A stretch of 64,000 bases of DNA from Psammoneis japonica (Eukaryota). Position numbers and translations under genes: made by a program. The stretch is taken from positions 635,848 to 699,847 of the forward strand of contig QPGO01000024.1 in assembly GCA_008632985.1 (NCBI GenBank), written 5' to 3'. Positions 3,835 to 32,059 of the stretch are shown piece by piece. The notes beneath the pieces are model-generated. The model was not told the DNA's origin and ran no database searches. It worked only from the letters and a program-made list of their open reading frames with translations. Every line of letters starts with the position of its first letter. Within the stretch, counting starts at the first letter, position 1.

Positions 3835-5209
3835 TCAACTAGAGTGTAGCAGGGCCCTCTCTAGCAGCAACACATGCAGAGTTTTGCGCAAGCAATAATT
3901 GCAAATACTAGCACGACCATAAAGTGGTAAAACGCCCCGCTTATCCGATACCGAGCAATCTGACAAGAACAGAAAATGAAATATGTGTAAGGACCACGCC
4001 ATCAAGAACGCAACACTCAAAACAAGCAAGTGAAGAATTACATCAAGATCAAAGCCGATTCTGTCCGCGCGTCCTTGTTCTTCAAAGTGCCGTTTGATCG
4101 TTCTGTAGACTGATTGTGATAGCGGCGGTTCAATGGCAGTCTTCCAAGCTAAAATCTGAGAGTTGTGGAACTCGTCCAGAAACAAATCAAAGGGCAAAAA
4201 GTTCTTCGCAAGCAGCCTGGCGTTTATGGCTAGGACAACACCTGTTCGTTGGTATCAGCAGAAGGATAATGCAGATAAAACTCAAATGAGAAAATGTGAA
4301 ATTCGTGATTACATGTATGGTCGAGTCTCGGAGAGAAAATACATACCGGCTGACTTCTGCGTAACATTGAAGTCTCGAATGAGCTTCGAAATTTTGGCCA
4401 GGTCGACTTCGTGAAACCCTTGCATCATGCGATCCGTGCTTTTGTATCCAAGAGAAAATGCAAACTCGAGTTTCTCGTCAACATCCTGTACAAAGAAGAG
4501 AGGACAAGACTGTATTGAAAAGAATGCTCCAGAGGCAGTGTCGACGTTGATTCGAGACGGGACGTACTTTGGCGTGTTGGTTAAACTTGTCAAGGAAACG
4601 AATACTAGTTGGCAGGAAAGCATTGGCTTCGATTCGCGCATCCCCAACAGGAAGTATATCGGCATTCAGGAATATAACTTTTCCGTTCGGATCTACATCT
4701 TGAAGCGTGAGTAGCAGGTTGAATACGGGGTCCAGTACTTCCACCTTTTTGAGGTCTAGCTTGATATGTTTGAGAAGCACAGGCCTTTTCTTCTGGCTGT
4801 CCGTAGCTATGACCGTGTCCATGAAAGTTTGGAAGGACAAATCGCCTGATCTATGAGGAAAGTGCCCCATTATTATTTCTTGTTTTTCTCTGTGGCCGCT
4901 CTTGGTAGTGTCTCGCCCAATGATAACGTCAGCTTCGATAGCCGTAATGCGAGTATCCTGGAGCGCCCTGTGTAACTCTCGTCTGGAGTTGGTGGCATGT
5001 GACCAGACTTGAGAAGAGGACGGAAGCCTCGATTTTGTGGAGTTGCTTGTACCATAATTGCAGTCCTGACAGCGCAGGGTATAACCAGCTCGAGAAGACT
5101 TGTAACCCACTTGAGATAACCAATGCATCGATCGATCATTCAAATTGCAGTAGCAAAATAACACAAACAACGAAATGGCTGCCAACGCAAATCTTCCTCG
5201 GCCGCGCAT
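3835..5209 (-). CDS. Menorin/FAM151 (DUF2181)-like protein, paralog A, multi-exon
   Basis: WSHATNS, AIEADV, IMGHFP, KHIKLDLK and FLNADILP motifs in ORF 4478-5209; continued by exon pieces FAFSLGY (in ORF 4309-4665) and LAINARLL...QILAW...IGFD (~4030-4240). N-terminal hydrophobic anchor. 3' end approximate. Confidence 0.7.
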
Positions 5210-7255
5210 GAAACAAAGCGGCTGAGCGGAAATGATATCATTGTGTCGAGGTTGGCCATGGGGGAAATGTGTCCACCCGTCCCCGTTTCTACCTGCAATG
5301 AATCATCATCATCACAACCACCTTCAATCTCCAGAGGTAGGGCTACTTTCATTGCGTGTCGAAACTTATTCTCTAGTAAGAAGCTGGCTCTCATGTCGAG
5401 GATATGATAGAAATATCAATAACATTGAATATAGGTCTTCGTCATGATGGACTATGGACCGCAATAAGAGATTAGAAGCATTTCAGAAGTCAGAAGAGAG
5501 AAGGGAGCGGTTAAATCACAACAGATCACAGTGGGCGGGGTCGGTACCGCCATGGCTCAGCACGCTGATATTCACAGATCAGAGCGCGCGCAGATCGCAC
5601 TCGATCCGTCCGTCGTCGATCCGATTTTTTTCGAGCCAAAAATTGGACGCTTCGCTGAACGGCTGTCTCATTGTCTTCATGAACATGCATTTTTTAAGAT
5701 AAAACAGTTGATGCCACCGATCCAAAAGAGCACCCATCATCACATCAGCTGTTTGTCTGTTTGTCCACAAAGGCTTTGAACAATGACTGGCATCAAGAAT
5801 GACTGAACTGTTTCATCAAACGCAGAGAGAAAGAATCAGTGTGGGGCGAGATTCTGTCATGCTTTTGAACGATTCAAGAGTTGACAGCAGATGATGTGAA
5901 GGAAATCAATGAGCACATGGTTGAGTCTGGGCCTGGTGACACTGGAAAGTGACATCCCAAGCAATGTAACCTGTGCTGTTGCCACCGCCAATCTGGGCAG
6001 GAACGTGTCGATGACACATTTTCAAGAAGGCACACCACAGAAGGAACACACCACTCAAAATCTCTTGCAAAGCCACCTCCTCCAACCCCCACAGCCACCC
6101 ATTGGTCTTGGCCTTGTTGCCCTGCTCTGAGCAAGAAACCTCAAATGGAAAAAAGCAAAACACAACAGGTGCAGGCATGTGGATTTTCAAGATTAGATGT
6201 CCAGCGACACATTTTGTTTGCAGCCTGCCCAGATGCTCACACCAAGCAAGCTGGGGATGAATCAACAGGCATGTTCAATGTGGACCCACTTCTCAAAAGC
6301 TTTCCCATGGTTGTCACCCTCTCCAACAATGAGCCTCAATGAGAGCGTGGAGATGAGAGAGGCCAGCAACACTGCTGGCTTTCTAAGAGATCAGAGCTGT
6401 CAGAAGATGTTTTTTAGATGATTCAGAGTTGACAAGGTCAGGGTTGATGGTCGCTGGGTGAGGTCAGCCTGTGTTTCACAAGCTGAGTCCATTGTCTTGA
6501 GGCATGTCATCACAAGGAGAAAAGGCTTGTTTCACATTCAGTCATGCATTTTCAACTTTCCTGTTGCTGTGATGGGTTTCATTCAAAAGAGAATTCCGAG
6601 AATCAGCCAGAGGATGCAGATGACTCCATTCCCAGTTTTGTGCAACAACACAATGACTGTGCACCACAAGCTCCAGGCAGGGGGAGGGGAGACAACGCGA
6701 GCCTGGTTTTCTCAACAACTGTGAGACCAGAGTGACAACAAGAAAGGGACTTTGTGTTGGGAAGAAGCTTGAAGGCAGGAAAATGAAGGGCAGGTCATTG
6801 GCGCTGAGTGGGTTCCTTGGTCACTTCAGGAGCACACACAACAAGAAAAGAGAGGGGTCCAAGAAGGCTCTCAGGGCTGCTGTGAGTGACTGTGCAATGC
6901 ATTGCAGCAAAGATTGCAGTCATCAGACAATTTTTTTTGACAAGATGGCAACAATCTAGCTGGGCTTGCGTCATGCAATTGTCCTTGTCAGGTGCAGAAA
7001 CAAGAGGGTTGAATTGTTTGCACACGATCCCCGGTTTGAAAGTGAGCGTGCACGCAAAAAGCACAAAATCCAAATGACATGCATCATCTCAACAGAAAAA
7101 CAAACCATTGTGTCACACACAAAAAGTTCAATGAATGAGAGACAAAAGCAACTGGCATTCAAACATTTGCCATGACAAATGACCTCAAAATAGAGAAATG
7201 ACAACCAATCAATTGGCCAGGAGTCAATGGCATCCCAACCGGAAAATGACCAAGG

Positions 7256-8576
7256 CACATTCCCACTCTGATGATTTGGCCGCAAAACAAATGCAATTTG
7301 GCCAAATTTGTGTAAATTACAGGCGTCAGGCTGGGAATGAATTCAAACAGGGAAAAAGATCAAAATCTCACGTCGAGCTTGGTGAGGACTGAGGACGCTG
7401 CTGCAGAGCTAGAGAGGTGCCATGCTGGATGACATGACATCATGCAGCAAGATCACGAACCTTGTCAGTGACAATCGTTGTCCATTTTGCGATGGCTCTG
7501 CACTCGAGACTCATGACAAAACCAGTGAAGGTCAGAAGAAAAGCATCCAATCTGCTGGCAAAAGGTGCAGAGAGAGCAGAAAGATTGACGATCGCATGCA
7601 GCATGACTGCAGCATGCATAAAGCATCAATGCCAAATGAAATTTCCACAGCATGCAAGGTTCTAAAAAGTGCTGGACTTGACTCTTGCCTGCTCAGCAAT
7701 GGCCCAAATCCATTTCACAGAGCAAAGAAACACAGAGCAAGTCACAGAGAAGGGCTGCAGACTGCAGACAATGGAGCACAGAGCAAGGCACTGCATGAAT
7801 GAGGCACATTGCCAACGCTGTTGTGCAAACCATTGACCCCCACCAGCATCATTTTCCGACCGCACGACAAGAGTCATGAAACAAGTGCAAACAGCCTTGT
7901 TCATCATCATGTTCCATCACAACAGAGCACAAGCCTTGTTGTCATTGTCGATGACCACAATTCTTGTGTTCTTGACTGTCAATCAAATGACAACCTGGAG
8001 TGTGCACCAAAGAAACACCCCAATGATTCGTCAGAGCACACACTTCCATGTTGATTCAGCATCAAGTTGGCAGACGTGTGGTTTGTGAAGAGTCCCACAT
8101 GAAATCTGAACAAGAGAAACAAAGACAGCAAAAATGCCATTAGTCGACATGGTTGTCACAAGCCACAACAACAATGAAAAATCAAAATTCTGACAACTTG
8201 ATCGCACCAAGCGCAGCCTCATTGATCTGTCTCCACATTCTCACCTTCATAGACAGGATGGTCGTTTGTGCATGAATGGGTCCATTCATGGCAGCAGCCA
8301 TCATGGTTGTTTGCAGATGTTGGAGAAAGAAAAATGGGGCTTGTGACGTGGCACGTTCGAGCTCCCAAAACGCCGAATTTGCCATGAAAATTGTGTTTGC
8401 GGGAGAGAATTTACAACGACCAACACCTGTCACTGTAATTTGCCAACAATTTCAGCTGTAAATTGGCGGATGGAAAACAGATGTGCGATTTTTCTTGTGC
8501 GAGAGTTTCCACAGTGATTTTGTGCAGAACGAAATTACGTTCATTTTGCAGCCAAAATCATTGGGGTGGGAACATG
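7256..8576. mobile_element. Non-autonomous DNA transposon with ~45-bp imperfect TIRs and a probable 7-bp TSD
   Basis: 7256-7299 cacattcccactctgatgatttggccgcaaaacaaatgcaattt versus the reverse complement of 8532-8576 catgttcccaccccaatgattttggctgcaaaatgaacgtaattt. Flanks accaagg (7249-7255) and tccaagg (8577-8583). CA...TG termini. Confidence 0.7.
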
Positions 8577-8760
8577 TCCAAGGCAATGTAAAATTCAGAA
8601 TGTTTCACATGTGTTGACAAAGTGACTTTTGTGATGTTCTGAAGTGTGCAAAAGTCATTGGATTCCATTTTGTGTGCAAAGACCCCTTGCAAATTTGGTC
8701 ATTTTGAAAGTGGTCAGCCCCAGATCCTGACTTTGTCTCACCCATCTGTCTCTGGTCCAT

Positions 8761-9032
8761 TTGTCCCAAGGTGCTGATTGCCATCCCAAGTGCCAGCCAT
8801 TTCTCCAAAACTTGAAGATGATTGGATCTTCAGCAAGAGGAAGGATGAGCACAGTGTCCTCCAGAAAAAGTGGCAGCCCTTTTGCAAAAGCCCAAATGAG
8901 TGGCACAGAGACCGCACCTCTCTTTTGAATGTGTTCTTGAGCTTGCCATTTGTCCTGAGTGGAGCAGCAAGAATGAGTGTAAAATCATGGGCCTCTTGCT
9001 CAATGCAGGAAGCAAATTCAAAAAATTGTGGA
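8761..9032 (+). pseudogene. Hypermutated fragment homologous to 13609-13868 (part of ORF 13328-14242)
   Basis: Direct alignment: KLEDDWI...LQKKWQ...KSPNEW...DRTSL...CEIM/CKIM.LLLNAGSKFKK shared; small indels present. Confidence 0.9.
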
Positions 9033-12000
9033 TGTCCACATGCCACAATCTCAGCAGCAGCCCTTCAGAAACAGCTCCAGCATCTTGCTGTTGTTTGCTT
9101 GTCCCAGAGTGCACCCTTTCTGGATGGCACCTCAACAACACTCAGCTCTGGCAGCTGGCCAAAGTCTCCTTCAAAGAGCTTGGCAGTGGAGGGCTGTTTC
9201 TGACCTGCCAGAGGTGCTGTCCCACACACATGCTTGAAGGTTGTCTCTGGCGTGGAGGGAGCCTGTTGTGCAACTCCCAGAACACATGCACCCTTTCTGG
9301 TCTGTGCCTCCAGAATGTTCAACTCTGGCAGTCAGCACAGGCAATCTTCCTTGAGAGTTCTCCATCAACAAGCTTGTTGGGGGCTGTTCCTGACTTTTGC
9401 ATGTGTTGAGTGACTGATGTCAGAGGTGCCCTTCTGTGAATGTGCTTGAAGGTTGTCATCTCCAGAGGAAACCCATCACACAACTCACTCTTTTGGATGG
9501 AGCTGGGCTCTGCTGCACAGTGGCAAATGTGCAAGAAGCAAAAATTGCTTGCATCAAAAAATGACACACCCAGGCACCCAGGCATTTGGGTTGGTGGCAA
9601 ATGATGAAAATGCAGTTGTCAGGCCAGAGTTTGTTTGGCATCGTCAGCATTTGACAGCATGCTGTGTGTTTTCATGATGCACATTTTCTGCACTTCCACA
9701 GTTTTGGCACATGTCCAATGCCATTTTCCACTTCAATGCAAGCAGTGCTCCACATTTGCTCTCAAACCAATTTCTTCACCACTCCCCCCACCCCACCCCT
9801 GCAAAAGCAGTGCCAGTTTGGGTTGCCCAGGGCCCAAGCCCACCTTGGTGCACTTTTCCAGTGCTCTTGGCCTTGCTGGCACATCATCTCTGGCAAAGCA
9901 AAACAAACTGCAGTGTCAAATGCCAGAAAGTGAGTCCAAGTCCAAGTGGGCTCACATTGGGCAAGACAAGCTGACAGCAGCAGGGGTGAGAATGAGAAAT
10001 GAAAAGCTCTGCTTCCTCTTGGGGAAGTTCTGCCAGGGTGACACATTTGTGTGACCTCTGGAAGAGAGAAGAACAAAAGCAGCATCATCAACCACCAGCC
10101 ACAAATGCCAGTGCAATGTTGGGTGTTGGTGGTTTGGTGTTTTTTCCTCACAATCAGAAGAAAGGGTGGGATGTGGCACCAATCCTCCCTTGGCTCACTC
10201 TGACTCCACATGAACTGGAGACCAAAATTGCCAAGCCAGCACCTTGCAAAGAAAGATGAGGGTTGCTGTTGACTCAAGTCTCAAGTGCTTGGTGGTGTGT
10301 GGTGCATCGTCACTGCTGGGGTGCCTCCAGCACTTTGCAGCAAACTCACTCCCTTGCTGCTCTTTTGCTTGTTTTGTGCCATCAACTTTGAAGCCCCAAA
10401 CACAGCACCTTAAAAATGCCACCTTCACCCAAAGAAATTCCCTTTGGCCAACACTTTTCTGGCAAACCTCAGCAGTTTTTTTTTTGTTTTCATGGCCAAC
10501 AAGTCAATCTTGGGTCAATCAGCTGAGCCATCAATGATGTCCCCACTGCATCTTGAAATCCTCAATGGCAGAGCATTGTTGTCTTCCTCAATGGACAGTG
10601 ATGAAATTGAGCCATTGTTTGTGGTGGAGATGTTGGAATGTGCCAATTCCAAATCTTGCTTTGACTGTGTCTGCAAAGAATGTGATGGTGATGGCAAAGG
10701 TGATTGGTTCAGCAATGCTGTCTGCCTGCCAGAATGATTGCTGGTGTTGACTGAGACCATGTTGCTGGAGAATTCTGGCAACAAGTGCATGTGCTGTTGA
10801 CCTTGGAATTTGGTTTGTGCCAATGCAGTCAAGGTTCAGACTGCACTGGAGGATGAAGTCTGCCATTTGGAAGAAGAAGAAGAAGAAGGCGCCATTGTTG
10901 GTTGTGACTGCCATGTTGCAGGTTGTTGGAAGCTGTCAGTTGTGGGGACGCTCGTGATTTTTGTGCAAGCGTGCACACAGAAGAAGCGGCGTGCAGCACA
11001 TGTGCCTTGTTCATGCTGGTGGGAACATTTGGTTTTTTACACCATGCGATGGTTGCTCCCTCTGCACTCTTGGGTCTTCTGGGTTGAAGTTGGGAATCAT
11101 GAAAAAGTGCTGGTGCTTGATCACATGATCTGAAATGTTCTGACTGAATTGTTGAAGTTGTTTGCAGAACTGCCAAAGAAAAGCATCAAGGACCATCATC
11201 TGATGAGCATGATCAAATGAACAGGCACATTGTCCACATCACACACAAATGCGCTGGTGCATGAACAATGCAATGCTGGATGGCACAGGTGAGCTCAAAT
11301 GCGTTTGTGCATTTGCATGACACACCACATTGTGTCAATTGTGGCATTGCGGTTGTGTCAACAAGACAAGCCAATGACAACCCATTTGTCTCATTGGCTG
11401 CTCCAATCAACAAGGAGAGGAGGTCTGGACCATGGTGCCATGTCCAAATTTCAATGGAGGAATGAGGTGTGCCTCCAATCTGTGGCACATGTGTTTCTGT
11501 GTGGGGCACTGCATGGTTCTGATCAGATCAAGCAGCTCAAGGTCAGATTTAAAAGGTGATTTCTCAAAACTGTGGTTGCAAATGCAAGCAAATGAGGTTC
11601 TTTGGCTGAAGCCAACTCCATTGCCATGGAAGCAAGATTGGGGTTTGTGCCGCAGTGGATGGCAAATCATGCTGCCACAGTCAAGACAAGCACACACGCA
11701 ATTGATGCCAACAGCAAATGCCTTGGTGCAAATGACTGTCTCTGTCATTTCCCACAAAACACTGCAAAGTTCACATCCACTCTGCTGCTTAAAGCAGAGA
11801 AAGGGGAAGCTGCATTCAGGAAAAGACAGTGGCATGAGTCTTTCTTCTGTGTGAGCAAAACAAGCACCAAAGGGAGCAACAGCAATCAAGAGGAGCATTT
11901 TTCTTGGGACAATGCTTTGTGTCTTCTTTTGCTTGAGGCCGAGCATGAGAATTGGACTTTGCTCTGCCTTCTTCCTGGGTGCAACAATGCCAGTGCTTTC

Positions 12001-12635
12001 AACTGAGTGTTTGATTCATTCTTGTCTTGCAGCTCCTTCCACCCAACCGCTGCCACACACATCATGAATGATGCTTGGGCTCCTTCAACAAGTCATTTTG
12101 TCACAATCTGTGATGGACACAATGGGAACAACGAGAATCACTGTCAGCTGCAAAGCATGCAATCAACTGTGGACATTCAGCATCACAAGTCCAAGCCAGA
12201 GCTCCGTCGCCAACCACAACTTTGACCCAAACAGCGCCCAATTTGAAGAAGATGATGGCAACATGAGTCACCACAATGATGCTCAAAGCATGGCTCCCTG
12301 GCAAGGGAATTGCAACACAACCTTTGCCAATTGCAGTGCTGTGCATGTGTGGTGCCAGCTGTCCTTCAGATGCACACATTGCCAACAAGAGAAGTGCACA
12401 CACCCTCAGAGAACGTCTTCTTCTCACAAAAATCTTCTGAAGGGTGGCTGCTGATTTGGATGGATCCACACTGATGTCTTCAGGTCAACAACAGTTGTTT
12501 TAACAGTTGACGCCTGGACAGCAGCATGGTTTGGCAGTTCACACCATGTGCGGCTGCTGGCACACCCCAAAGAGCCCAATTTTTCAGAAGTTTGGCAGCA
12601 ACAACTCACAGAGAGGCAGAGGGGGAACAGACAGA

Positions 12636-12731
12636 TGGGGTGCAGATTCAGATTTCCATCCAAAATAGGTGCAGATCTTATGCAACCCCCTAAACACAGG
12701 TACAGATCCTTGCTGTAAATGGGTGCAGATG
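12636..12731 (+). repeat. Four short GGT(G/A)CAGAT repeats spaced ~22-31 bp at the right edge of island 1 (possible subterminal repeats)
   Basis: ggtgcagat three times and ggtacagat once within ~100 bp. Confidence 0.5.
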
Positions 12732-13076
12732 TTCTATGATGCTCAGGAAAGCTCAGGTTACCAGCAGCAGTTCTCATGCTCGCTCGCGATCGCGCTCATC
12801 AAGCAATCAGTCCGTCTGTCAGTCATTTTCTCTAACGTCGCGAGCGGGCGCAATCGTTTTGTCGCGCCAAAAAAATGAGCAAACTTTTTTCGCGTCTTGT
12901 GCGTGTGCGTGTGCTGGCATGTGGCATGGCATGTGCTAACCTTACACAAACACACAACGAACGCACGCGACGACAGGTGCTTACGATCGTTTCTGGAGTC
13001 CATCGCCTTGTCGCTCATCAGCACAGTCAGATCGCAGGAAATCAGTATTGCATATTGGTAAAGCGTCGAAAGAACC

Positions 13077-14242
13077 ATGCCTCCTACAAGTACCGAGAAC
13101 AGTAACGACGAGAACCTCGAGCCGGTCGCCAATAACCGAGGAATGGTAGATACTTCCTCGTCAGGCGCTACCGGTATTAACAAGCCATCCTTGCAAGACG
13201 CTGATACCAAGTATACTGTTTGTCGTTTTGAAATCAGTAGGCTTGAGGGCGGCCGTGGCTTGCCGAGAATGACTACCACATTGACCTTGTCGTATCGAAA
13301 CACGGACTCTTTGATATCGTCACGTCCGTGTTTGACGTGCTGCAGAAAGAGAATTTGACTCTCGATTCGTACTACAGCCATCTATGGTCGCTTCAGTTCA
13401 ACGACACCAAGTTCAACTATGGTTGGAGAGACTGCAGTGGGGCAGCGGTCAAGAACCACCTGGATCACAAAGAGCCGCATGTGCTGAACGGGCTCGCAAA
13501 ACATCTCCAAGACGGGCAGCAAGGATCCTTTTCAGGGGAATCTGCAACTTTTGATTTTGTAGTCAAGAGCGCTGCTTTTAAGGAAATCCGTACGAACCAA
13601 GTAGACGCTTATCCCAAGGTGACTGCCATCCCGAACGCCATTTCTTCGAAACTTGAAGATGATTGGATCTCCGACGAAAGGAAGGATCAGTGCCGCATCC
13701 TTCAGAAAAAGTGGCAGTCCTTTTATAAAAGCCCAAACGAATGGCGTAGAGACCGGACCTCTCTTGAATATGTTCTCAAGCTTCCCATTCGTCCAGAGTG
13801 GAGCGGCGACGAGTGTGAAATCATGGCCCTCTTGCTCAATGCAGGAAGCAAATTCAAAAAATCGTGGACAACTGTTCTGCAGTATGCCTTTTGCGATCGC
13901 GCCGAAACCGCTACATCCGGAGAATGGTACAAGCTGCAGCGAGAAAGCTATACTCGTGACCACTATGGACGATCCATGTCAAATGACGCCAAAATACAGT
14001 TGGCCAAGCGACTTGCCAGGGCTCGTGTCAACAAGTTACTAAAGCAGGGAGGTCCTCCCCAGGGTCCTCCACCTCATCCTTTTGTCAAGACGGAAACCGT
14101 GTTGCGCAAGCGTGGACTGATTACCGATGACATGGATGACAAGACAAAGAAACGTCAGCTTCGTATGTTTGAATGGGATGTGCGAGAGGGGCTATTCGAC
14201 AGCGGTGAGGAGGGCAGGAACGGCGGTGTTCGTATTCGTTAG
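13077..14242 (+). CDS. Hypothetical protein (intact member of a repeated family; main ORF 13328-14242, possible upstream exon from 13077)
   Basis: 304-aa ORF with normal TA/CG content; a homologous decayed fragment lies at 8761-9032. No family recognised. Confidence 0.55.
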
Positions 14243-14590
14243 AGGTTCATGGGTAACCAGAAGTTCCAGAGAATGCATTGGCATGTTTGAACGCTTTAAC
14301 TTTTGTGTGATGTGACCGATGGAAGTGAATAGGAATGATCCGGTTTCGTCTTTGGTAAAGAATCGAATCCGGCTTTCGTTCTAATTAGGTAGAAATACGC
14401 AAATCTTTTTAGTAGGGATCTCCATGAGCAGATAATCGAGAGTCATTTGCAACATATTCAACACGCAACATACTCTAGTTTCTTCATCTGTGACATCATA
14501 CCAAGGAGTGCTCGTCGATCTGCTAGAGCAATTGAGAAAACAGGTTGTTCCTGTGCTTTTGGTTACAATCGTCTTTAATGAGGTTCTACT

Positions 14591-15757
14591 TTATGGTGAG
14601 TCGCTGTGAATATTGCAGTCAAAACCAATGCTGTCTCCTATTCCAGCGGCGCAAAAGTGTGCTTTGATCCTGTCTATCAGTTCCATCGGTATGGCTGGCT
14701 CTCCGCTTCCAGTCCACGCCAGAATCTGAGCCAAAGGGAATTTTCTTAAAAAGTCGACAAAGGGCTGAACATTCTTTGACATTAGCCTCGCATTAATGGC
14801 AAGAACGAGTCCTATGAGAAAGGAGCGAAACGATACGAAGTGATGAGAGCACAAACCACAATGTCAGTTCTTACAGGAGGCCTCGAAATGAGTGTGATTC
14901 CTGTGTTTACCTGCCGACCGTTTCATAACATTGTACTTATTCACTATTGCGATCATTTGATCAAGATCGTCTTGCACAAACGCAGATTCGGAGCGATAAT
15001 CACATCTGTACCCCAAGGAAAAGGCGAACTGAAGACCTGGCTTAGTGTGCTTACACGCAGCAAGAAGCGGCATCAATGTGAATGATCCATTTTTCTAGAT
15101 CCACAATTGTGTGCATCAAACACGATTACTCACCTGTGAATCGATACACCGTAAGCAAGTTTGCATGAACGCGTCGGCTTCAATAGTGGCTTTCTCTCTG
15201 GAGCCCGGGCCGGGAAGCACGTCTGCGTTCAAGTACACAATTTTGCCACCCGGGCTTATTCTCATCGACGTTGCAATTTCCAAAGATTTCCCAACTGCTT
15301 CCAGTTCCTTAAAATCTAATTTGATGTGCTTTATTAGCGTGCGAGACGTGGTTGACGTGTTTCTTGGTGCAGCCATGTCAAAGAATTTTTCCATTGAAAG
15401 ATCACTTTCAATTGCCGGCGGGTGAGCGGCGATCGGAATCGTTAGTTTCTTGTTCAGAGCATATCCCATGAGAATATCTGTTTCAATGGCACTAATATCC
15501 TTGTCTTGTAACGCATTCGTTAACATTTGTATCGTCGTGGTAGAGTGCATCCACTTTTGATCTGCGGAAGGTAGCCGAGTGGCGTCGAAATCATCCCGCC
15601 CATCCTTCATTACTTCGATGTCCCTCTTTGGAAAAAATAAAGGAGCCTGTAATACAACAAAAGACCGATGACAAGACAAAACCAAATAAAGCATCAATAC
15701 AACAGAGTCGTCCTCAGCTACGGCAAGAATCGAAAGCTCGTTTCCTTCACGCTTCAC
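14591..15757 (-). CDS. Menorin/FAM151 (DUF2181)-like protein, paralog B, multi-exon
   Basis: WMHSTTT, AIETDILMG, AAHPP, KHIKLDFKE, YLNADVLPGPG; exons FAFSLGY (in ORF 14864-15076) and LVLAINARL...QILAWTG.GEP...IGFD (in ORF 14591-14854). Same exon pattern as paralog A. Start uncertain. Confidence 0.75.
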
Positions 15758-17051
15758 GGTCTTGCGTCAAGGGGTCTTGCTATTGGACGCGAATGAACTC
15801 TGCGCTCTGCGCACTCGGATCTCGGATCGTTCCCGACGCGACACCAATAAGCTAATTTTCGTTTTCTCGACACCTACTCTTGCGCGACAGATGGCTAATG
15901 AGACCATGCATATGATGCAGGATCACGCCATGTGAGATGTGAGATGTTGTGACATGGCGAACAGTTGTTTTTATTACAGAAGTTGCGTGCCTGATGGCGC
16001 CGTTTAGTTGTGCGGACTTTTTGAATATTTTGAAGTTGATTTTGGATTTTTTCATTTTTCGATCTATTCAACGTGGATCAAACAAGCAGACAAACACACC
16101 ACGCGATCAAACTGCCGGCTGTTGGAAAGCATTTTTCGGAGGTTGGACGGGACGGGCAGGTGGAATGGCTTCAACTTTCTTCTTCCAAGGCTTGAAGCCA
16201 GCAGGATTGAGCCATTGTCCAAGAAAATTGGCCTCTTGAACACATCATTTTTGCACTTCACAGAGGGCACACTTCTTGGTGGCTGGCCCTCGCAAGAGCC
16301 CACTCTCTCTTGTTGCAACAAGGGGCGCAAGACTTTCTAAAAACAAGACAACAGATGAAAACCAAAAGTGATGTCAAAAGGCTGGGCATCATTGTCACAA
16401 GTTTCAACATCCTAACTGTGCACAGTCTTTTCAACAGCAGCAGCTTGTGCACAACATCGTGAGCCTTCTTCGCTCTTGACCATGACATTTTTCATCAGCT
16501 GGGTCCAGCCAAATCTGTCTTTGCAGCACTCAGTTTGGGTTTTCACAGCTGTTGTTGAGTTTGTCCATCAAATCTGATGCCACATGCCAACTTTGTGACT
16601 TCCACCAGTGGGGATTGTCTCCATGGGGATGACACAATCTGGCCAACAAAAAGGCCTTGATTTGCAGTGCCGAGCTTTGGACCAACCTCTTGTGGAGGAA
16701 ATCTCAGCCCAACATCTGCACATCATCAAACAGAGGAGGAGCTCCAGTCCCATTGACTCATCAAAAGGTCTTGTCACACTCCAGCAAAGTCAAGTTGCTG
16801 AGCAAAGCTCTCCATCTGAAATGAAATGATGATTTGGCCAAAATTTTGAGAAGAATGAGTTCCTTGTGTTCCTCCTTGCCAAGCAAGGGGCTGTGCCTCA
16901 ATGTGACACTCCTTGGAACAGATCCTGGGCACACCAGCCCCCCTGGAGCAAAGCAACACCCATGTGCTGTTTGAGACAATTTGTGCTGTTGAGTCATGCA
17001 CACATGAGATTTGTGTGACAGCTGGGGCAGGCCATCCTTTTTTGCTGCCCC

Positions 17052-17105
<54 letters not shown>

Positions 17106-17108
17106 TGC
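17052..17108. repeat. (TGT)n-(TGC)n compound trinucleotide microsatellite
   Basis: tgttgttgt...ttgctgctgctg visible directly. Confidence 0.95.
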
Positions 17109-18339
17109 CACAGCCTTCAGAACAGACACTGGGACTGTCACAGGAGCAGAGCTGTGCCGTGCACTCCAAATGGCGTGGCAGTCAGCTGCAAGTGCAAAAC
17201 TGAAGTGCCGCAGTGCTGAACAATGTCAGTTGTGTTTGGGAAGCAACAAGGGTGGTGTGCAGGAGAAGAGCAAGTGCAGCTGCACAACCAACAAGTCACA
17301 TTGTGGCCTTGTTGTAGCTGATGCAGCTGAAACTGTGAAATGTGTTTGCACTGGGCTGACTTGAGAAAACAAAAAATGCAAAGGTTTGTGACTCATGAAT
17401 CTTGTTTCTCTGCAGCTCTGTTGTCTGTTGCTCTTGAGCCTTTTGCAGCATGCAACGACCCCCAATCAATCCTGTTCACACCTTCAGAAGCTCAAGCACC
17501 AATGGCCAATCTGACAGCTCATGCAGTCTGTGACCACCAATGTCAACAAGAGTTGCAAAATGGCAACCAAATGGACATTTCAGCCCGGGGATTCTGTCTG
17601 TGAACAAATGACAGACACTGCAGTGAACACAAGAGCTGCAAATGCAATGCAGCATCTTGTCTGATGAAAACTCTGGAACAGATCACAGCAGATTCACTGG
17701 AAGGAGAAGAAGCAGAAGTGCCTCAAGCCACATCTTGAACAACACCACCACTTTGCACCCATCCCAGTGGCATGGGTGCTGCGGCAGCTCAGTCAGAAAG
17801 GAGGCTCAAGAGCTGCCCTGCAATTGGTCACCTCTAAAATTTCTGACAAATGGCAAAAGCCACACTCAAAAGTTTGTGGATTCATCAGTGCAAGGTTTGG
17901 CATTGCTCCAGCAAGAGCAGCTCACTGTTGCATCAAGGGATTGCAAATTCCCTCTTCACAGATTAGCGCCAGACATTTCTGCAATGCACCAACTGCAAAG
18001 ACAGCCAAGTCAAGACAAACTGTCATTGCGTGTGAACAATGAAAAACCCATGCCAAGCACTGACAGCATCCCAAACCTGCTGCAGCATGAAGACAAAGCA
18101 CCAAAAATGATTCAAAGTCTGTGCATGATTGCTCTTTGCAAATTTCTTGTGTGCACAAAACCCAGTCCTGTGTTCATGTGCTCTCTCAACTGCACAAATC
18201 CTCCTTTTCTCTCTGCAAATGAGGGGTGAAAAACCACATCTCATCACCACTGCAACAGCTGGCATTTGGCATTTCTTTTCTTGGCAACCAAGCTGTGCCC
18301 CAAGGCAAGAAGGGCTGCTGCACCACTTGCAAGCAGTGC

Positions 18340-21000
18340 CACATCAAAATGACTGGCAATTGTGCAAGTGACTCTGGCAGCAAGTCTCTTTGCTTTGTGG
18401 ATGCTTGACTTGAACATGGGGCACACCATTGCCAACCAATTCAGCAACATGGGGGTGGAGTGAGTCAAGTGTTCATCAACCGAATCAAACAAGTGTGCCT
18501 TGTTTTTTGCCAGACAGTCATCAACTCTTGAGTGGATGGCCTTGACTTTTGCCTTGGTGTCACAACAATGAGAAGACTTCCTGGTTTCAGAGACATGGCC
18601 ATGAAAACAATGTCATTGCAACAATCCCACAATTTCCACCATTGGGACCAGATGTGTGAATCTGTTGCAGCTGGTTGAGCCACTGCCCAGTCCAATTGTT
18701 GCCAGCAGTGTTGCTGCCCTGATCTTGAGATCTGCTTTCTGCTGAACATGGCTGCTGAGCTTCACTTTGCCATGCAGAAAACCTGCCATTAAAGATGTGA
18801 TGCCACCCTGTTCCATCTTGAGAATGGAAGACAGCACAGATGCTGTGGCATGCTTTGTCAGAATGTGGTGGAAACTTTTCTTGAAACCAGCAGGACTCTG
18901 TCACACAACACCAAGTCACACGCAAAGAAGGAGAAGTGTCCACCTCATTGCACTTCCTTCTTGCACAAGCTCTGAAGGAAAGCTCAGCACCATTGTTCGT
19001 TGCAAGGGCAACCAAGAACATGATCCCTGTCTTCCACAGGAGACTGGCAATGAGTGCAACAGTCCAGGCAAATTGGACTGTGCCAGCAGATGATTTCATC
19101 AGTGGGCAAAAGATCTTGAACAAGTTTGACAGCTGTTTTGCATGAACCTGCCAGTTGATGGAATGCAAGATGGCATCAGACCATCCATGCTTGTCCTTCA
19201 TGCAGATGCAGAGTGCAAGAGCAGATGCTTCATGGTGCAGCACTGATGTGAACTTTGTCACAGAAGATTCATTTGCAAAACAAGACTTGCCACACAAGGA
19301 GGCAAGCATGGTGCCAGCTTCTTGTTTCCCAAGAAGGAACCATGGTGCCATCCTGCCAGGCAACCAGCTTGGACATTGCTCAACTGAGCCAGCACGGAGA
19401 GCAACTCATGTGGAACAATGTCTTCCTGGTGACTTTTTGTCCATGACGCCACCACTTGAGCACCGGCAAGGTCACCAACAGAGCACTCTGATCCATGTCC
19501 ATTGGAGTGAATGGAAAATTTCATGCAGCATGTCCCAATCAGAAGCCAGAGCATGTTTGCAATGTGACGTTGGTGTGCAAAGTCACTGTCTGGGTCTGGC
19601 AATGCCTTGTCATCTAAAAGGGGGCACAAAGTGAAAATTGGAAACACTGTGAACCAGAGAGGAGGAGTTGTTGCAAAACAATTCAACTTCCAATGGAAAG
19701 ACCATTTGAGAGTGCTCTGCAACTTGGAGAAGGAAGCAAAGAAACAACAACAATCTGTGAGCCTCAGCTTGGTCTGAGGATGGCCAAAAACCAAAAACCA
19801 AGACTGCACAATCAACCTGAGGAGGAGTGCCATTGATGGTCAAAGTCCAGCCAAAGAAAGTGTTAAAATCAAATCCAACAAAGAGCACAGCAGCCAAGGA
19901 ATGAAAAGAGGAGTTGGAACAATCCTGCACAGAGCACCACTTTGTGTTGAAAAAGGCTTGGCACAGGCGTGCTCTTTCTTCTTGACACAATTGGCTTGAG
20001 TGTGGACATCACTTCCAACCATGCCCAGATGACATGTTCTGGGTGTGGTTGGTGTTTTTGTTCTGCCAACTTCACTTTTTGTCATGCAAGCACATGGGCT
20101 GGCCTTCATTGCTTGCTTGGTCAAAATGATGGGCAACAGCAGCATGACCAGCCTGAGCAACACTTGCCACGAAGCTCAATCTTAACAAGAGATGAGCAAA
20201 CAATGCAGGACCCATTGGTGTGTTGCAGCTGGTGAGCCACTTCTTGATGAAAATGATTTTGCATGTGCAACAACATCTCAGTGATGTGCTCTCTCCTTCC
20301 TCCAGCAAAAATTGGACAAATTCCAGCACATTTGGAGCCATCATTGAATTCTTGAGTGTGCTTGTCATCTTTGAGCAACAAACAAAGGTTGAATGTTTGC
20401 TCAACACACACATGCTGGACTCCAGAAAGCAGCTTGGCAGATGCAACAAACAACAAATGTCTCTGGCAGCAATCAACAGGAGCAAAAAATGGCAAATGCT
20501 TCACAACAAAATGGGTTTTGACAAGATCAAGAATGTGCAGCAACTGGGTTGGGCCTGGCTGGCAACTCACCCTTGATCCAATTTTTCTTCTCTTTTCTTG
20601 TTGACCCAAGTTGCAAAAATGAGGGTGTCATTGCAACAAGGCAGAGCAAACACAAGCTGGTGCAACAATGAGAGCACAACTTTGTGAGCAAGAAGTGCCA
20701 AACGGTGGCTTGTGAAGACAACTTGACACTCTTCTCCTTGACAATTGTGCAAGGAACAAGGAGCCAAGAAGGAACTGCTGTCTGGGCACCACCCTTCTGC
20801 TGTGGCTCTCATGGCACACAATGTGTTGGTCAGGGTGTGCACATGTGGTGTGTCAGAGGAAGCACACACTGCTGACACATGAAGCACAAGTGGCCATTTT
20901 GTTCCAAGAGTCTTGCATTGCCAAGACAAACTTCACTCAAGAGACTTTGGAGAGTCTCCTCTCTCATAATTTTCAATCTGATTGCAGCAGCACCAGTGCC
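18340..21000 (-). mobile_element. 5'-truncated, decayed non-LTR retrotransposon (RNase H domain and C-terminal region)
   Basis: Minus-strand fragments FGW.L, PSSDQAEAHRLLLFLCFL (cf. PSSYRAEAYGLLSFLRFL), FCNNSS (cf. YCDN), WTKSHQED...LSVLAQL.NVQAGCLA (cf. W.K.HQD...LN..AD.LA), GWSDAILHSINW, HIFNGRFS, WWKLWDCCND (cf. LW..RN). Consensus motifs recalled from algal non-LTR elements, not from a search. Confidence 0.7.
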
Positions 21001-21557
21001 TTGAATCCACTGTGTGTTGACATGTGCCATTGTCTGCTGGCTGTGCTCTGCAGCCAGTCACACCCGCGCTTCGCGAATCATCACAATGCGTGAGGAAGGG
21101 TGGGGTCATCACCCCAGCTGGAGCCTTTTCATTTCTCTCCAGGCCCCAGAGAGGATTCTTATACTCTCCACCGGTGCGCTATGAGGCCCATTTCATTGTT
21201 CCTGCCCTCCCGCACTTTTGGATGCTGTGTGGCTCTTTCTGTGTCCGAGATTGCTGTCGCACTCATTTGCAAACTTTAAACCCTAGTTTGCATTCACCGC
21301 TACGTGCTTTAATAACACAGAGTCCATGGCTCAAGGAGAAAAGCTATTGACAGCACACTATCGTGTTGCAACACAAGAGCTCAATTGCTGATCTACGAAA
21401 CTAGTAACTACCTAATTTACGGTGTTGTATTTCGATCCCTGATGTGCTTCGCGTCAGTAACCTAGAACACTTGTATGCTTCTTGTAGAATGGCTATCAAG
21501 CGACTTTCATGGTAACGGTGTGTTCTCGACAATTAGTTTAGCATTCCGTTTGATCGC

Positions 21558-22031
21558 TTATCGCCCAAGCCTCACGCTATCGCAGAAGATGCTTCGCTGA
21601 CTACGCGGAAAGAGTATGTGCAGCGTCCGAAGAAGTGTTTCATTATTATTTGAATGGGACGCCCCGGAAGACGCTGAACTTGTCGAAACCATTGGTACAC
21701 GAAGTGCAACAGCATGTCCATTGTAATCCTTGACGAGTAAGGCGGACTCCTCTGTTTCAATCGTAATTAAAGGAGACTGCTGCGCTTCATTCTTATGCAG
21801 CAAGGTGGACGCCAACCGCGTTAAAGAGGTAAAGATCCCAGTTTCGTCGTTCTGAGGCTCTCCTTTCTTGGAGAGTAATAGCCCGCTGGGGTCATTGCAA
21901 ACAGCACCCGTGATACCTGCGGGTTGACCTGGAGACACCAAGAAGGACTCGTCCGCTATCACGCCGTTCTGGCTGCTGTTGTTACTGGTTGTTTCAAACT
22001 CCCTTTCGGTAACAACTTGCGCACGACTCAT
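21558..22031 (-). CDS. LAMTOR5: Ragulator subunit LAMTOR5 (HBXIP)-like
   Basis: GITGAVCNDPSGLLL...GIFTSLTRLA...PLITIETE...LLVKDYNGHAVAL matches the roadblock-fold LAMTOR5 pattern (GV.C.D.QGL...G....L...A...P.V.LE). 3' end may be spliced. Confidence 0.7.
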   Translation of the reverse strand: MSRAQVVTEREFETTSNNSSQNGVIADESFLVSPGQPAGITGAVCNDPSGLLLSKKGEPQNDETGIFTSLTRLASTLLHKNEAQQSPLITIETEESALLVKDYNGHAVALRVPMVSTSSASSGASHSNNNETLLRTLHILFPRSQRSIFCDSVRLGR

Positions 22032-22339
22032 TGTTCGGTAGATTCAAGGATAAGAAGGCTCACAAAAATGCAGTATGAATCTTTGGGAAAGGGTTTTGGG
22101 GTGGAGTTGGTTTCAATTGTATTCTCCTTTTGCGCCGCAGTTGCCAATATCTTTTGTCAACTTCTCACGTCATGGTCGACTCCTCAGACCGGCGTACCGC
22201 GCGCGTTAAACGCACTACGCACGCACCGGTATTTACTGTTGACATGCCGCAGAATTCGTGACTTGGAATGCCGGTTCTCCAGTTGTGATCATACAATTTT
22301 CCTCACGTCGATTGACAATTGACATACCGGTACAGTACG

Positions 22340-23389
22340 ATGGGTTGCTGCAGCTCCAAGTCGGATGATGGCATCAAGATTCCTGCTGTGGTTCGCAAGG
22401 CCGCAGACGTCGACGCCATTTCCGATGAGAAGCTGCCACTGGGCATTCTTCTGACGGGTGGTCTTGTCCTGAGGCAGGAAGGACTGGACGGAAGAGGCGT
22501 TCGCATCGCTGTCATTGATTCTGGTATTGACGAAACCCATCCTGGGTTCAATAACAAGGTGCAGCGTAAAAAATGGTTCCGCTCAGGCAATCCCTTGACT
22601 GTGGACGACCATGGGACACATGTCGCGGGAACCATTCACCTCATGGCACCGCAAGCCGAGATTTTTGATTTTCGCGTATTCGGCCCACGTGGGACTGTCT
22701 CGGTTACCGAAGCAATCGCCAAGTCAATCCGGGAGGCAGCCGACATGAATTGCCAGCTAATCAACATGAGTTTGGGAGGTCCTGTTTCTAGTCCATCTAT
22801 CAAAAGTGCGGTGCAGTACGCAGCAGAGAAAGGAGTAATAATGGTTTGCGCGGCGGGGAATGAAGGAGACAACAACCCTTTAACCAACGAAATCAGGTAC
22901 AGCATGTCGGTTGAGTTTTCAATGTCAAAGTCTCAATCGCGAGTGTTTCACATTTTCGATTCCTATTCTTTTTCTGATTTCATATGCAGCTACCCTGCCT
23001 TTTACGAAGAGTGCACGAGTATTGCAGCTGTAGGAAAAAAGAACGGCTTTCCTGTTGCTGTCTTTTCCAACTCAAACAGCCAAGTCGACTACGCCGGCAT
23101 TGGTGTTGACGTTGTATCTTTCAAGCCTGGTGGCGGATATCAGACAATGAGCGGTACATCCATGGCATCGCCGCATTCATGTGGCTTGATTGCCTGCTTG
23201 ATTCAGAAGTTTGGCGGTCGTCAAACGGAGTTGCGCCGTGTTCTCGACGAGTGCCACGCAATTGATATAGCCGCCGAAGGCTATGATAATGCGACGGGTG
23301 TCGGTTTCTTGACTTATCTCGATGAAAGCGCCTTTGACGAGCTCCTCCCGCGAAAGATAGGTGGTCTGAGCCCCGTACGTGTCAATTAG
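22340..23389 (+). CDS. Subtilisin-family (S8A) serine protease with N-terminal MGCC motif; in-frame intron 22897-22989
   Basis: Catalytic triad motifs IAVIDSG, HGTHVAG and SGTSMASPH, plus oxyanion AAGNEG. Removing the 93-bp GT..AG intron restores NEISYPA. Confidence 0.9.
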   Translation: MGCCSSKSDDGIKIPAVVRKAADVDAISDEKLPLGILLTGGLVLRQEGLDGRGVRIAVIDSGIDETHPGFNNKVQRKKWFRSGNPLTVDDHGTHVAGTIHLMAPQAEIFDFRVFGPRGTVSVTEAIAKSIREAADMNCQLINMSLGGPVSSPSIKSAVQYAAEKGVIMVCAAGNEGDNNPLTNEIRYSMSVEFSMSKSQSRVFHIFDSYSFSDFICSYPAFYEECTSIAAVGKKNGFPVAVFSNSNSQVDYAGIGVDVVSFKPGGGYQTMSGTSMASPHSCGLIACLIQKFGGRQTELRRVLDECHAIDIAAEGYDNATGVGFLTYLDESAFDELLPRKIGGLSPVRVN

Positions 23390-30449: not shown

Positions 30450-30895
30450 GGGCTAAGTGACCGGTACTCTACTCTCTAGTAGTTAGTAGCTCTAGCAGCA
30501 GCTCTACTCTCTACTAGAGAGAGTCGAGTACCAGGTTAGGTAGTCTTTAAAGTGTCGGCAGCGCAGACGGATCGGACAGATACCGTACGTAGATAAGATA
30601 GAATTAGTCTGAGAGCTCTACTAGAGTAGAGAGTAGAGTAGCCATAGCGCTACGCTACTCTCTCTCTACTCTAGAGTAGTACCGGTAGAGAGAGGAGAGT
30701 AGCTACTCCAGCTAGCTCTACTCTCTAGCTATAGCGTAGTAGGGCTAGCTAGCTAGGCTAGCTACTAGTAGATAGCTACTCTCTCGTCTCTCGCGTCGCG
30801 CGCTCTATCTTATCTATTAGATAGATCTATCTATCGGTAGATTATCACGTCTTGCATTCCATCCAGCCATTATGATACCTCTCTCTCTACTTGCT
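30450..30895. repeat. TA/CG-rich, TG/CA-poor low-complexity tract (CTAG/TAGAG/CTACT motifs) upstream of the FCP gene
   Basis: 30601-30840 has dozens of TA but only 1 TG and 2 CA (counted by eye). Confidence 0.85.
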
Positions 30896-31094
30896 ACAAA
30901 AAGGAGAGCGAGACCTCGAGGTAGGAAGCAACACTCCTTGAACTCGTATCTTGCTACGTAAACTTTCTACCTGCAACTCTGGTACATGAAATTCGCGACA
31001 CGCATTTTGAATCAAAGGATCTTCTCTGACGAGCCTCCGCCTCTCAATGCTCTCACTCTTTGAACGTACCAAGCAGTCGTAACAAGAAGTAACA

Positions 31095-31718
31095 ATGAAG
31101 CTCGCCGTCGCCGCCCTCCTCATCAGCTCTGCTGCCGCCTTCGCCCCTGCCCAGAACGGACGGGCTTCCACCACCCTCAATGTCAACGAGCTCGAGCTTG
31201 GAGTCACTGAACCCCTAGGTGTGTTTGATCCCCTCGGATGGCTCGAGACCGAGCCCCAGGCCTTCGAACGTCGTCGTGCCGTTGAGCGTAAGCACGGACG
31301 TGTCGCAATGGCTGCCGTTGTTGGAGTCATCGTGCACAACAACCACATTGTCTTCGATGGATACCTCTCCCCCTCCAACAACCTCAAGTTCTCCGATGTT
31401 CCCACCGGCATTGACGGAATCCGCGCAATCCCCACCGCCGGACTTGCCCAGATCCTTGCTTTCTTCGCCCTTGTCGAGCTCGCCTGGATGCCTGCCTCCA
31501 AGTACGACGGAGACTATGGTGTTGGTTACTTCGGTACCGATATTGAGGACCCCGAAGAGAAGGCCCGCAAGCTTAATGTCGAGCTCAACAACGGCCGTGC
31601 TGCTATGATGGGTATCATGGGTAACATGGTTGCTGAGGTTCTCACCGGACAAACCATGTACGAGCAATACGCCGATGGACACATCTCCCCCTTCGGTGAT
31701 GGACAGGGTGTCTTCTAA
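31095..31718 (+). CDS. Lhcf: Fucoxanthin-chlorophyll a/c binding protein (Lhcf; FCP-A-like), copy 1
   Basis: Signal peptide plus AF-AP plastid motif, FDPLG, ERKHGRVAMAA, ELNNGRAAMMG. Closely resembles the Chaetoceros PSII FCP-A sequence as I recall it. Confidence 0.97.
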   Translation: MKLAVAALLISSAAAFAPAQNGRASTTLNVNELELGVTEPLGVFDPLGWLETEPQAFERRRAVERKHGRVAMAAVVGVIVHNNHIVFDGYLSPSNNLKFSDVPTGIDGIRAIPTAGLAQILAFFALVELAWMPASKYDGDYGVGYFGTDIEDPEEKARKLNVELNNGRAAMMGIMGNMVAEVLTGQTMYEQYADGHISPFGDGQGVF

Positions 31719-32059
31719 GATGTGACCTTTCGCAAGTCATGAAACTATGCTACGTCTGCAGTTTGGGTGAACAATGAGCGCTTCTTCCATTGCGAGTAGA
31801 CTTTTTACAATAGAGATTCTTAGCAAGGACAACAGTTGTTTTCAGCTATACATAGCAGGTCATTATGTTTGTGTAGAGAATGTCTATGTTTGCCATGGCA
31901 TGTTCTTATTACTTATCTTGCGGGCATCCCAACCCCAAACATTCATCCTTGATCTATCAACTATCAACCTTCAAAACTGATTCGAAATGAGGGACGACGC
32001 TGGCAGCTAAAGACATTTTGGCGATGATTCGAGACGCCAAAAAAGGGATTTTTGGCGTC

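Follow-up and report, generated by a model that had tools for sequence, protein, structure and literature searches.

Islands nearly devoid of TA and CG in a diatom contig, and a gene pair that suggests context-specific hypermutation of repeat-derived DNA

The locus

We analysed a 64-kb stretch of the genome of the diatom Psammoneis japonica (contig QPGO01000024.1, positions 635,848 to 699,847; assembly GCA_008632985.1). This whole stretch is called the window below, and positions are counted from its first base. The window has compact genes of a phototroph, including those for chorismate synthase, enoyl-ACP reductase and two light-harvesting proteins. It also has four islands from which the dinucleotides TA and CG have nearly vanished. 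One island holds a fragment that is homologous to part of an intact gene in the window, here called gene X, and the two sequences form a before/after pair (Table 1). We consider it probable that this diatom directs context-specific hypermutation at repeat- or transposon-derived DNA, and that the pair represents the input and the output of the process.

Table 1. Features of the window that bear on the conversion of TA and CG. Positions are those of the window; run X1 is a sequencing run whose contigs are described in the text.
Feature	Position	Strand	Remarks
Island 1a	5701-9040		TA 5.7/kb, CG 16.5/kb; repeat family, many copies at least 90% alike in run X1
Gene-X pseudogene fragment ("after")	8761-9032	+	1 TA, 1 CG; at the right-hand limit of multicopy DNA in island 1
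Island 1b	9041-12665		TA 1.4/kb, CG 6.6/kb; single copy at a likeness of at least 90%; depth 51-73
Degenerate internal repeat in island 1b	9090-9500
Island-1 segment, homologue of 32924-33248	10230-10544	+
Second island 1-island 3 pair	within about 12380-12600 and 33200-33400
Gene X, conserved hypothetical host gene	13077-14242	+	388 amino acids, counting a C absent behind 13261
Intact segment ("before") of the pair	13609-13868	+	5 TA, 14 CG
Island 2	16154-20966		TA 1.9/kb, CG 4.8/kb; a run X1 contig spans 17119-23000
Decayed gene remnant in island 2	18346-19855	-	relatives with weak RNase H-like (RVT_3) and zf-RVT matches
Island 3	32206-35436		TA 2.5/kb, CG 34/kb (rho 0.55)
Island-3 partner of 10230-10544	32924-33248	+
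Island 4	59587-61678		TA 4.3/kb, CG 4.8/kb

Composition of the islands

The islands were located in 250-bp bins, after which their edges were set at base resolution. They measure 2.1-7.0 kb (5701-12665, 16154-20966, 32206-35436 and 59587-61678) and total 17.1 kb of the 64 kb. TA drops from 42.4 per kb outside to 1.4-5.7 per kb in the five island parts, a 7- to 30-fold loss. CG drops from 56.3 per kb to 4.8-16.5 per kb, or to 34 per kb in island 3, which is a 2- to 12-fold loss. TG and CA together rise from 142 per kb to 206-234 per kb. Expressed as relative abundance (rho), the islands have TA at 0.02-0.08, CG at 0.08-0.55, and TG and CA at 1.6-1.95, and the TA value outside is 0.62.

The total of pyrimidine-purine steps is constant (241.0 per kb outside versus 234-242 in the islands), G+C is unchanged (0.477 versus 0.46-0.50), and the other dinucleotides have hardly moved. 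Therefore, TA and CG, and essentially only these, were changed inside the islands, by one transition each. The edges are sharp, with both dinucleotides returning within tens of bases at 5700, 12666/12781, 16065/16153 and 20967/21065. We found no coding periodicity in the islands: the period-3 signal has a median of 0.99 and a maximum of 3.6, compared with 2.1 and 15.1 outside.

A pattern of this kind might be thought to reflect base calling, if modified DNA (5-methylcytosine, or a modified T or A) had been misread by a long-read caller. Small indels that distinguish the window from contigs of run X1 (a C behind 13261, TT behind 20386) are of a type often seen in long-read assemblies and would fit this view. 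However, the X1 contigs, which were built from exact 31-letter words at a depth of 51-74 over single-copy stretches, reproduce the island sequence over 8998-23000. Exact words at that depth cannot stem from error-prone reads, so base-calling error is excluded. We rejected this explanation on these contigs, and its probability is practically negligible. Single contigs span 8998-10410, 10477-13857, 13834-17041 and 17119-23000, covering islands and flanks alike, with 2 to 16 differences each (0.06 to 0.6%). No library type is recorded for the run, which may share its sample with the assembly and thus does not count as an independent isolate.

Besides that at 20386, small indels that set the window apart from the X1 contigs also lie at 5371 and 21636. 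The indel differences, including that at 13261, may be assembly errors or strain differences.

The before/after pair

A BLASTN comparison of the window with itself aligns 8761-9032 with 13609-13868 at 81.25% identity over 272 columns. The formal local alignment has 221 identical columns out of 272, and its 39 substitutions comprise 30 transitions and 9 transversions. Four insertions, of 3, 4, 2 and 3 nt, occur in the island copy. Because the 4-nt and 2-nt insertions shift the frame, 8761-9032 is, judged by its reading frame, a decayed copy.

All five TA of the intact segment differ in the island copy by a single transition, as the first-pass annotation of this DNA had stated. TA is replaced by TG at 13610, 13724 and 13769, and by CA at 13726 and 13747. 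The same annotation counted 12 of the 14 CG as TG or CA, with one retained and one transversion, and this count stands only under its own placement of gaps. The local alignment places 12 of the 14 in columns free of gaps; nine of these 12 read TG or CA, two read AG and one is retained, and the remaining two (13632 and 13807) adjoin gaps. The number of CG converted to TG or CA therefore varies with gap placement, from 9 to 12 of 14. One counter-example had been given (gtgaaa>gtaaaa), and it is real: TG at 13816 corresponds to TA at 8980, a change in the opposite direction. About 23 of the 39 substitutions fall outside present TA and CG sites, which is in line with the proposal, made at the same time, that the donor was a diverged paralogue.

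We placed the 39 substitutions at random over the 260 aligned columns in 200,000 trials. All five TA were struck in 0.16% of trials, and at least 11 of the 12 CG in 0 trials. The choice between TG and CA agrees with a T-A-Y rule (Y, pyrimidine), described below, at all four informative TA sites of the pair.

Sister copies of island 1a in run X1 have CA at 8640-8641, where the window has TG, and TG at 8850-8851, where the window has CA. At the second site, the TG of the sister copy is also that of the intact gene, in a conserved Cys codon. Given this agreement, the window copy went from TG to CA, presumably via a TA or CG intermediate.

Gene X and the polarity of the changes

The open reading frame (ORF) at 13328-14242, which the first-pass annotation took as intact, turned out to be only the 3′ part of a longer gene. 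This gene has its ATG at 13077, and its upstream part lies in another frame. Behind 13261, the DNA contigs of run X1 have one C more than the window, and adding it joins the frames into an ORF of 388 amino acids. We found 22 related proteins (E 1e-104 to 5e-44, 36-58% identical, 360-403 amino acids). These start with a conserved VCRF...GYA..DY block that, in the window, is located upstream of 13328 in the other frame.

Tocopherol cyclase is the neighbour of one relative in a metagenome contig, and none of 58 candidate stretches in viral contigs was confirmed as a relative. On this basis, gene X is an ordinary host gene that encodes a conserved hypothetical protein. Five metagenome loci with relatives of the gene, 22.7 kb in total, contain no TA/CG-free stretch.

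For polarity, each codon of the pair was mapped onto an alignment of the 22 outgroup proteins. The copies differ non-synonymously at 23 codons, and the residue that is commoner among the outgroups is that of the intact copy at 20 of these and that of the island copy at one, with two ties. At one TA codon, the Tyr encoded by the intact TAT is present in 19 of 22 outgroups, and at another in 11 of 22; the Cys encoded by the island copy (TGT and TGC, respectively) is present in 0 of 22 in both cases. A third intact TAT faces Trp in nine outgroups, Phe in seven and Tyr in two, and again the island's TGT (Cys) is matched in 0 of 22. At a further TA-bearing codon, the intact CGT (Arg) is matched in six outgroups and the other 16 have Lys, and the island's CAC (His) is matched in 0 of 22.

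On the evidence of the outgroup proteins, TA is the ancestral state at 13610 and 13724, and it is probably ancestral at 13769. The assumption that the intact copy represents the ancestor, made earlier from the integrity of its frame, is thus borne out, and TG or CA did not emerge from this comparison as the ancestral state at the sites that the proteins can polarise.

Contents of the islands

In run X1, island 1a has a depth of 191-861, versus about 60 elsewhere, and is represented by many short contigs that are 90-99% alike. The rise in depth begins at the left edge of island 1, and contig joints occur at 5663-5691. Depth is 861 in the bin 8438-9071 and 54 from 9072. Because the gene-X homology stops at 9032, shortly before this drop, the gene-X fragment belongs to, or adjoins the end of, a repeat family. 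A fragment of a gene-X paralogue inside the repeat was converted along with the repeat.

The remnant in island 2 includes a 272-codon frame (18590-19405, minus strand) with four significant relatives among 1.8 billion proteins (phmmer, best E 2.7e-9). One relative aligns over 19855-18346 (tblastn, P0024, amino acids 243-727). Because the relatives carry weak RVT_3 and zf-RVT matches, the remnant probably derives from a retroelement. It has Cys at the sole Tyr that is conserved in all four relatives, and His at two conserved Arg. A profile of the relatives matched nothing below E 0.1 among PDB sequences.

We scanned 68 island ORFs of at least 100 amino acids, and 150 of the 152 ORFs of 55-99 amino acids, against Pfam. 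A single match, at chance level, came from the longer ORFs (Folate_carrier, E 0.0095, far short of its cut-off), and the 150 shorter ORFs had none. When island ORFs were compared with the rest of the window at the protein level, only the known pair and a link between islands 1 and 3 were found.

Separate conversion of related copies

The link between islands 1 and 3 was found in a self-BLAST with purine/pyrimidine coding, of which only long matches were kept, as E-values are invalid for a two-letter alphabet. The alignment of 10230-10544 with 32924-33248 has 350 columns, with 185 identities (~53%), 87 transitions and 18 transversions. If two copies resolve an ancestral TA or CG differently, one to TG and one to CA, CA/TG alternation is expected between them. 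The first island 1-island 3 pair has 19 such double differences, compared with three for the AC/GT control. The second pair has seven (control two), and the repeat inside island 1 has 12 (control three), so that the three alignments together have 38 versus 8. Two paralogous genes outside the islands, which encode Menorin-domain proteins, have two versus two. Related island copies were therefore converted separately, including those within the internal repeat of island 1. At eight sites of the first pair, CG is present in island 3 and TG or CA in island 1. Conversion therefore continued after the copies split, which counts against the arrival of ready-made TA/CG-free DNA.

The same alignments bear on the idea that the islands are functional DNA or RNA selected against TA and CG, as might be the case if a nuclease or a sensor had to be evaded. 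However, the gene-X copy in the island is only a fragment with frameshifts, the islands are without coding periodicity, and none of the 218 ORFs scanned matched a Pfam family at the thresholds used. Moreover, related island copies are at ~53% identity and differ mostly by transitions, which is not the mark of a conserved function. We regard selection as a very improbable explanation.

Strand, context and rate

TG and CA are about equally frequent in the islands (325:392, 427:421, 537:583, 330:334 and 247:223). A runs test on TG and CA gives z values of -0.06 to -3.09 in the islands and +0.04 to -4.56 outside, with excess clustering in island 1b only. By this test, the islands have no strand-coordinated runs of TG versus CA beyond the non-island level. 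Both strands were changed alike, and one-strand RNA editing therefore does not fit.

Editing could nevertheless have preceded insertion: the RNA or replicating DNA of a retroelement or virus would have been edited by an ADAR- or APOBEC-type enzyme, and the gene-X fragment would have been captured and edited with it. In favour of this sequence of events, the island edges are repeat edges, island 2 has a retroelement-like remnant, and many copies of island 1a are still at least 90% alike. ADARs also favour U before the edited A, as mentioned in the text of a recent preprint (10.64898/2026.01.13.699255). However, one-strand RNA editing predicts changes from TA to TG on one strand, whereas TG and CA are nearly equal here and excess strand runs are lacking. 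The 38 CA/TG alternations between island homologues, and the CG kept at eight island-3 sites, likewise argue against it. Overall, editing before insertion appears unlikely.

Fifty TA survive in the islands, and their depletion depends on whether the A is followed by a pyrimidine. Depletion is 204-fold where this holds on both strands (one site left), 18.5-fold where it holds on one strand and 4.8-fold where it holds on neither (chi-square p 3e-11). TTAA is the best-surviving TA context, at 0.42 of expectation. The loss of CG in the islands shows no flank effect (p 0.50). In island 3, rho is 0.04 for TA and 0.55 for CG. A tetranucleotide model of island composition reaches r 0.815 with the T-A-Y rule, versus 0.696 without it, a modest gain. 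Given the T-A-Y effect on TA, the lack of a context effect on CG and an island 3 that is poor in TA yet retains CG, the data indicate two processes, namely a faster T-A-Y-directed loss of TA and a slower, context-free loss of CpG.

The two rates also help in judging an explanation without any dedicated system. The islands might be old, unconstrained, methylated heterochromatin in which 5-methylcytosine decays and an ordinary bias towards losing TpA acts without opposing selection. TpA is under-represented even outside the islands (rho 0.62), CpG is lost without flank preference, as expected of 5-methylcytosine decay, and the islands are without coding periodicity, all of which agree with such a history. 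Against it, TA is down 7- to 30-fold, and 204-fold for R-TA-Y sites (R, purine), with edges that are sharp to tens of bases. Additionally, in island 3 TA is almost gone and more than half of the CG is kept, so TA was lost faster than CpG decays. Finally, the spontaneous bias in most species favours G:C to A:T changes and so runs counter to TA becoming TG or CA, according to statements in the same preprint (10.64898/2026.01.13.699255). We therefore view passive decay as distinctly unlikely to account for the islands.

Comparison with known systems

Programmed hypermutation of mobile DNA has long been seen as a speciality of fungi, in the form of repeat-induced point mutation (RIP), along with deaminase editing in animals. 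RIP, known from Neurospora and other fungi, takes place in the sexual phase and depends on RID/DIM-2. It turns CpA into TpA, thereby enriching TpA and lowering G+C, and it mutates both members of a duplicate pair. The islands resemble its products in that dense, context-specific transitions have ruined repeats, with sharp limits at the repeat, and have left unrecognisable relics. By contrast, the islands lose TpA and gain CpA and TpG, with unchanged G+C. Also unlike a pair mutated by RIP, the copy of gene X at 13077-14242 is untouched, with 5 TA and 14 CG in the paired segment and an open frame; identity between the two copies is just 81% over 260 nt. RIP is thus an analogue in purpose, with the opposite chemistry at TpA.

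Silenced repeats lose CpG through methylation in vertebrates and plants, and CG methylation of transposons is known in diatoms. The CG arm of the changes in the islands would fit this decay, in which CpG becomes TpG or CpA without flank preference in silent repeats. The loss of TpA cannot be explained in this way. Moreover, diatom transposons are not known to be depleted in CG as strongly as this, to rho 0.08-0.11 with sharp edges.

The tRNA adenosine deaminases TadA and ADAT2-ADAT3 are known as RNA enzymes. TadA edits within UACG, as passages of one paper describe (PMC13170351), so that its edited A follows U or T and precedes C, in agreement with the T-A-Y preference in the islands. Fungal A-to-I editing prefers U at -1 (PMC11156358), which likewise agrees with T-A-Y. 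DNA activity of trypanosome and amphioxus ADAT2 is among the findings cited in the text of the preprint (10.64898/2026.01.13.699255).

Editing of retroelements by ADAR or APOBEC enzymes also leaves clusters of deaminase-made transitions that are fixed in genomic copies of mobile elements (for example PMC4866542). Such editing is strand-asymmetric and acts on RNA or single-stranded cDNA before integration, whereas the islands were changed on both strands and their copies separately after the split.

The closest parallel that we found is in Bigelowiella natans, a chlorarachniophyte (Rhizaria), described by Mettrop et al. in the preprint cited above (10.64898/2026.01.13.699255). As given in its main text, 230 of 231 mutations in two integrated viral regions of mutation-accumulation lines were A>G or T>C, and all of these 230 were on TpA, at ~1000x the background rate. 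The regions are integrated DNA of a nucleocytoplasmic large DNA virus (NCLDV) and a virophage. The same text reports 124 genomic clusters that are poor in TpA and rich in CpA and TpG, and an ADAT2-like deaminase was proposed.

The islands share with B. natans, as far as the preprint's main text describes it, the transitions from TpA to TpG or CpA on either strand, as well as multi-kb clusters that are TpA-poor and rich in CpA and TpG. In both, an ADAT/TadA-type adenine deaminase is the natural candidate. A tie to foreign or transposon-type, mostly unannotated sequence may be a further parallel. With regard to such targets, island 1a occurs in many copies, the island-2 remnant has relatives whose zf-RVT/RVT_3 matches are sub-threshold, and gene X has no confirmed viral relative.

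There are also differences from the B. natans case as given in that text. Ours is a diatom, a stramenopile. TpA loss is partial in the NCLDV region (rho 0.45), whereas the islands have rho 0.02-0.08. The B. natans spectrum is almost free of G:C>A:T, whereas the islands lose CpG too and their G+C does not rise, probably reflecting a second process. Rates were measured in the B. natans lines, whereas the islands are known from the end product alone. The main text of the preprint mentions neither CpG, nor diatoms or stramenopiles, nor a +1 or flanking context.

Other features of the window

Over its full length, the 207-amino-acid light-harvesting protein aligns with the Lhcf1/FCP1 chain of PDB 6J3Y (E 2e-127, ~16 differences); we take the species of this structure to be Chaetoceros gracilis. 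This match would place the window in a diatom near to, though distinct from, C. gracilis. In passages of a paper on the antennae of that diatom (PMC10870758), 6J3Y is used as the diatom FCPII structure. The two Lhcf-type genes (31088-31720 and 54628-55260) are inverted, 23 kb apart. Their 99.5% identity over 633 bp suggests a recent duplication or gene conversion.

The two Menorin-domain paralogues (PF10223) are at 4478-5209 and 15116-15757 on the minus strand, and a TA/CG-free island begins a few hundred bases 5′ of each. These two islands have no detectable homology to one another. A contig from a second run, X2, skips 4240-4344 and 4485-4566, with CT..AC ends, and is transcriptome-like; by this contig, the first paralogue has two short introns, of 105 and 82 nt. 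No X2 contig lies on the islands or on gene X, a lack of cover that counts neither for nor against their expression.

Two short intergenic regions, 30460-30830 and 50550-50770, are a mirror image of the islands, being rich in TA and CTAG, with TG and CA almost gone. The first (371 bp, G+C 0.47) has 57 TA, two TG, eight CA and 12 of the window's 112 CTAG. It includes a 137-bp run without TG or CA (30709-30846).

A TA-rich tandem repeat of ~108 nt occurs at 48284-48725, in four copies that are 91-94% alike. Another, of ~153 nt, occurs at 44812-45263, with copies 96-98% alike. An exact direct repeat of 54 nt is located at 41056-41109 and 43459-43512, 2.4 kb apart.

Interpretation

The alignments and counts above establish the pattern and polarity of conversion, and they show that it is confined to the islands and went on independently in different copies. 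Hypermutation directed by the diatom at repeat- or transposon-derived DNA could have produced this as follows. A fast process would turn TpA into TpG or CpA through adenine-to-inosine deamination on DNA, on either strand. It would prefer 5′-T-A-Y-3′, the context read by TadA/ADAT-type deaminases. A slow process would turn CpG into TpG or CpA regardless of flanks, with deamination of 5-methylcytosine in silenced, methylated repeats as the likeliest route. The role would likely be the permanent inactivation of mobile DNA. Here, we infer the enzymes, the methylation, the targeting signal and the current activity. With respect to the last, the window differs from run X1 at 26 positions in 8338 bp of single-copy island and at five in 7219 bp outside (tally from the contig comparison), which hints at ongoing conversion but does not demonstrate it.

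Several points weigh against directed hypermutation of mobile DNA. Only 12 of the 25 listed island differences between window and run are exchanges of TA or CG with TG or CA, and these go in both directions; a rough neutral, transition-rich expectation is about one third. DNA outside the islands, most of it coding, supplied the expected context classes, and the islands may originally have had another kind of sequence. Two of the five TA sites of the pair (13726 and 13747) span a third codon position, where the protein alignment gives no polarity. As to the mobile origin of the islands, the RVT_3 and zf-RVT matches of the relatives of the island-2 remnant are all below the Pfam curated cut-offs, and the scan of 218 island ORFs of at least 55 amino acids, at thresholds of E 0.01 and E 0.001, assigned none of them to a Pfam family. 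A search of islands 1 and 2 for long terminal repeats or terminal inverted repeats found none; it returned an internal repeat of 45 nt and one weak inverted pair. Lastly, the deaminase step and the 5-methylcytosine step are ones that we infer for this organism, and the evidence comes from one window of one genome.

Significance

We read the islands as a variant of a hypermutation known so far from one 2026 preprint in another lineage of the supergroup. In them the TpA signature is complete, and it occurs in a diatom, a member of an ecologically very important group. Relative to the main text of that preprint, the window adds a before/after gene pair with tested polarity, a coupled erasure of CpG with constant G+C, CA/TG alternation as proof that copies were converted separately, and a T-A-Y context suggestive of an enzyme of the TadA/ADAT type. 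In the literature that we searched, we found no report of TA-plus-CG-free islands in diatoms. The available text of a preprint on a Chaetoceros muelleri assembly describes many unclassified repeats and does not mention TpA, CpG or hypermutation.

Tentatively, a broader proposal may be made, which we see as possible though short of probable. Diatoms might have a RIP-like defence, in which a DNA adenine deaminase (T-A-Y, either strand) and CpG deamination erase both palindromic pyrimidine-purine steps from transposons after insertion, in a composition-neutral manner. Since a rhizarian alga shows the same TpA arm, such a defence might be ancient and widespread in the supergroup of Stramenopiles, Alveolata and Rhizaria (SAR), and it could explain why so much algal repeat DNA resists classification. 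If general, the pattern provides a simple sequence test, namely the absence of TA and CG with conserved pyrimidine-purine steps. It would then account for "unclassified" repeats in diatom genomes, and would suggest that there is a natural DNA adenine editor worth isolating.

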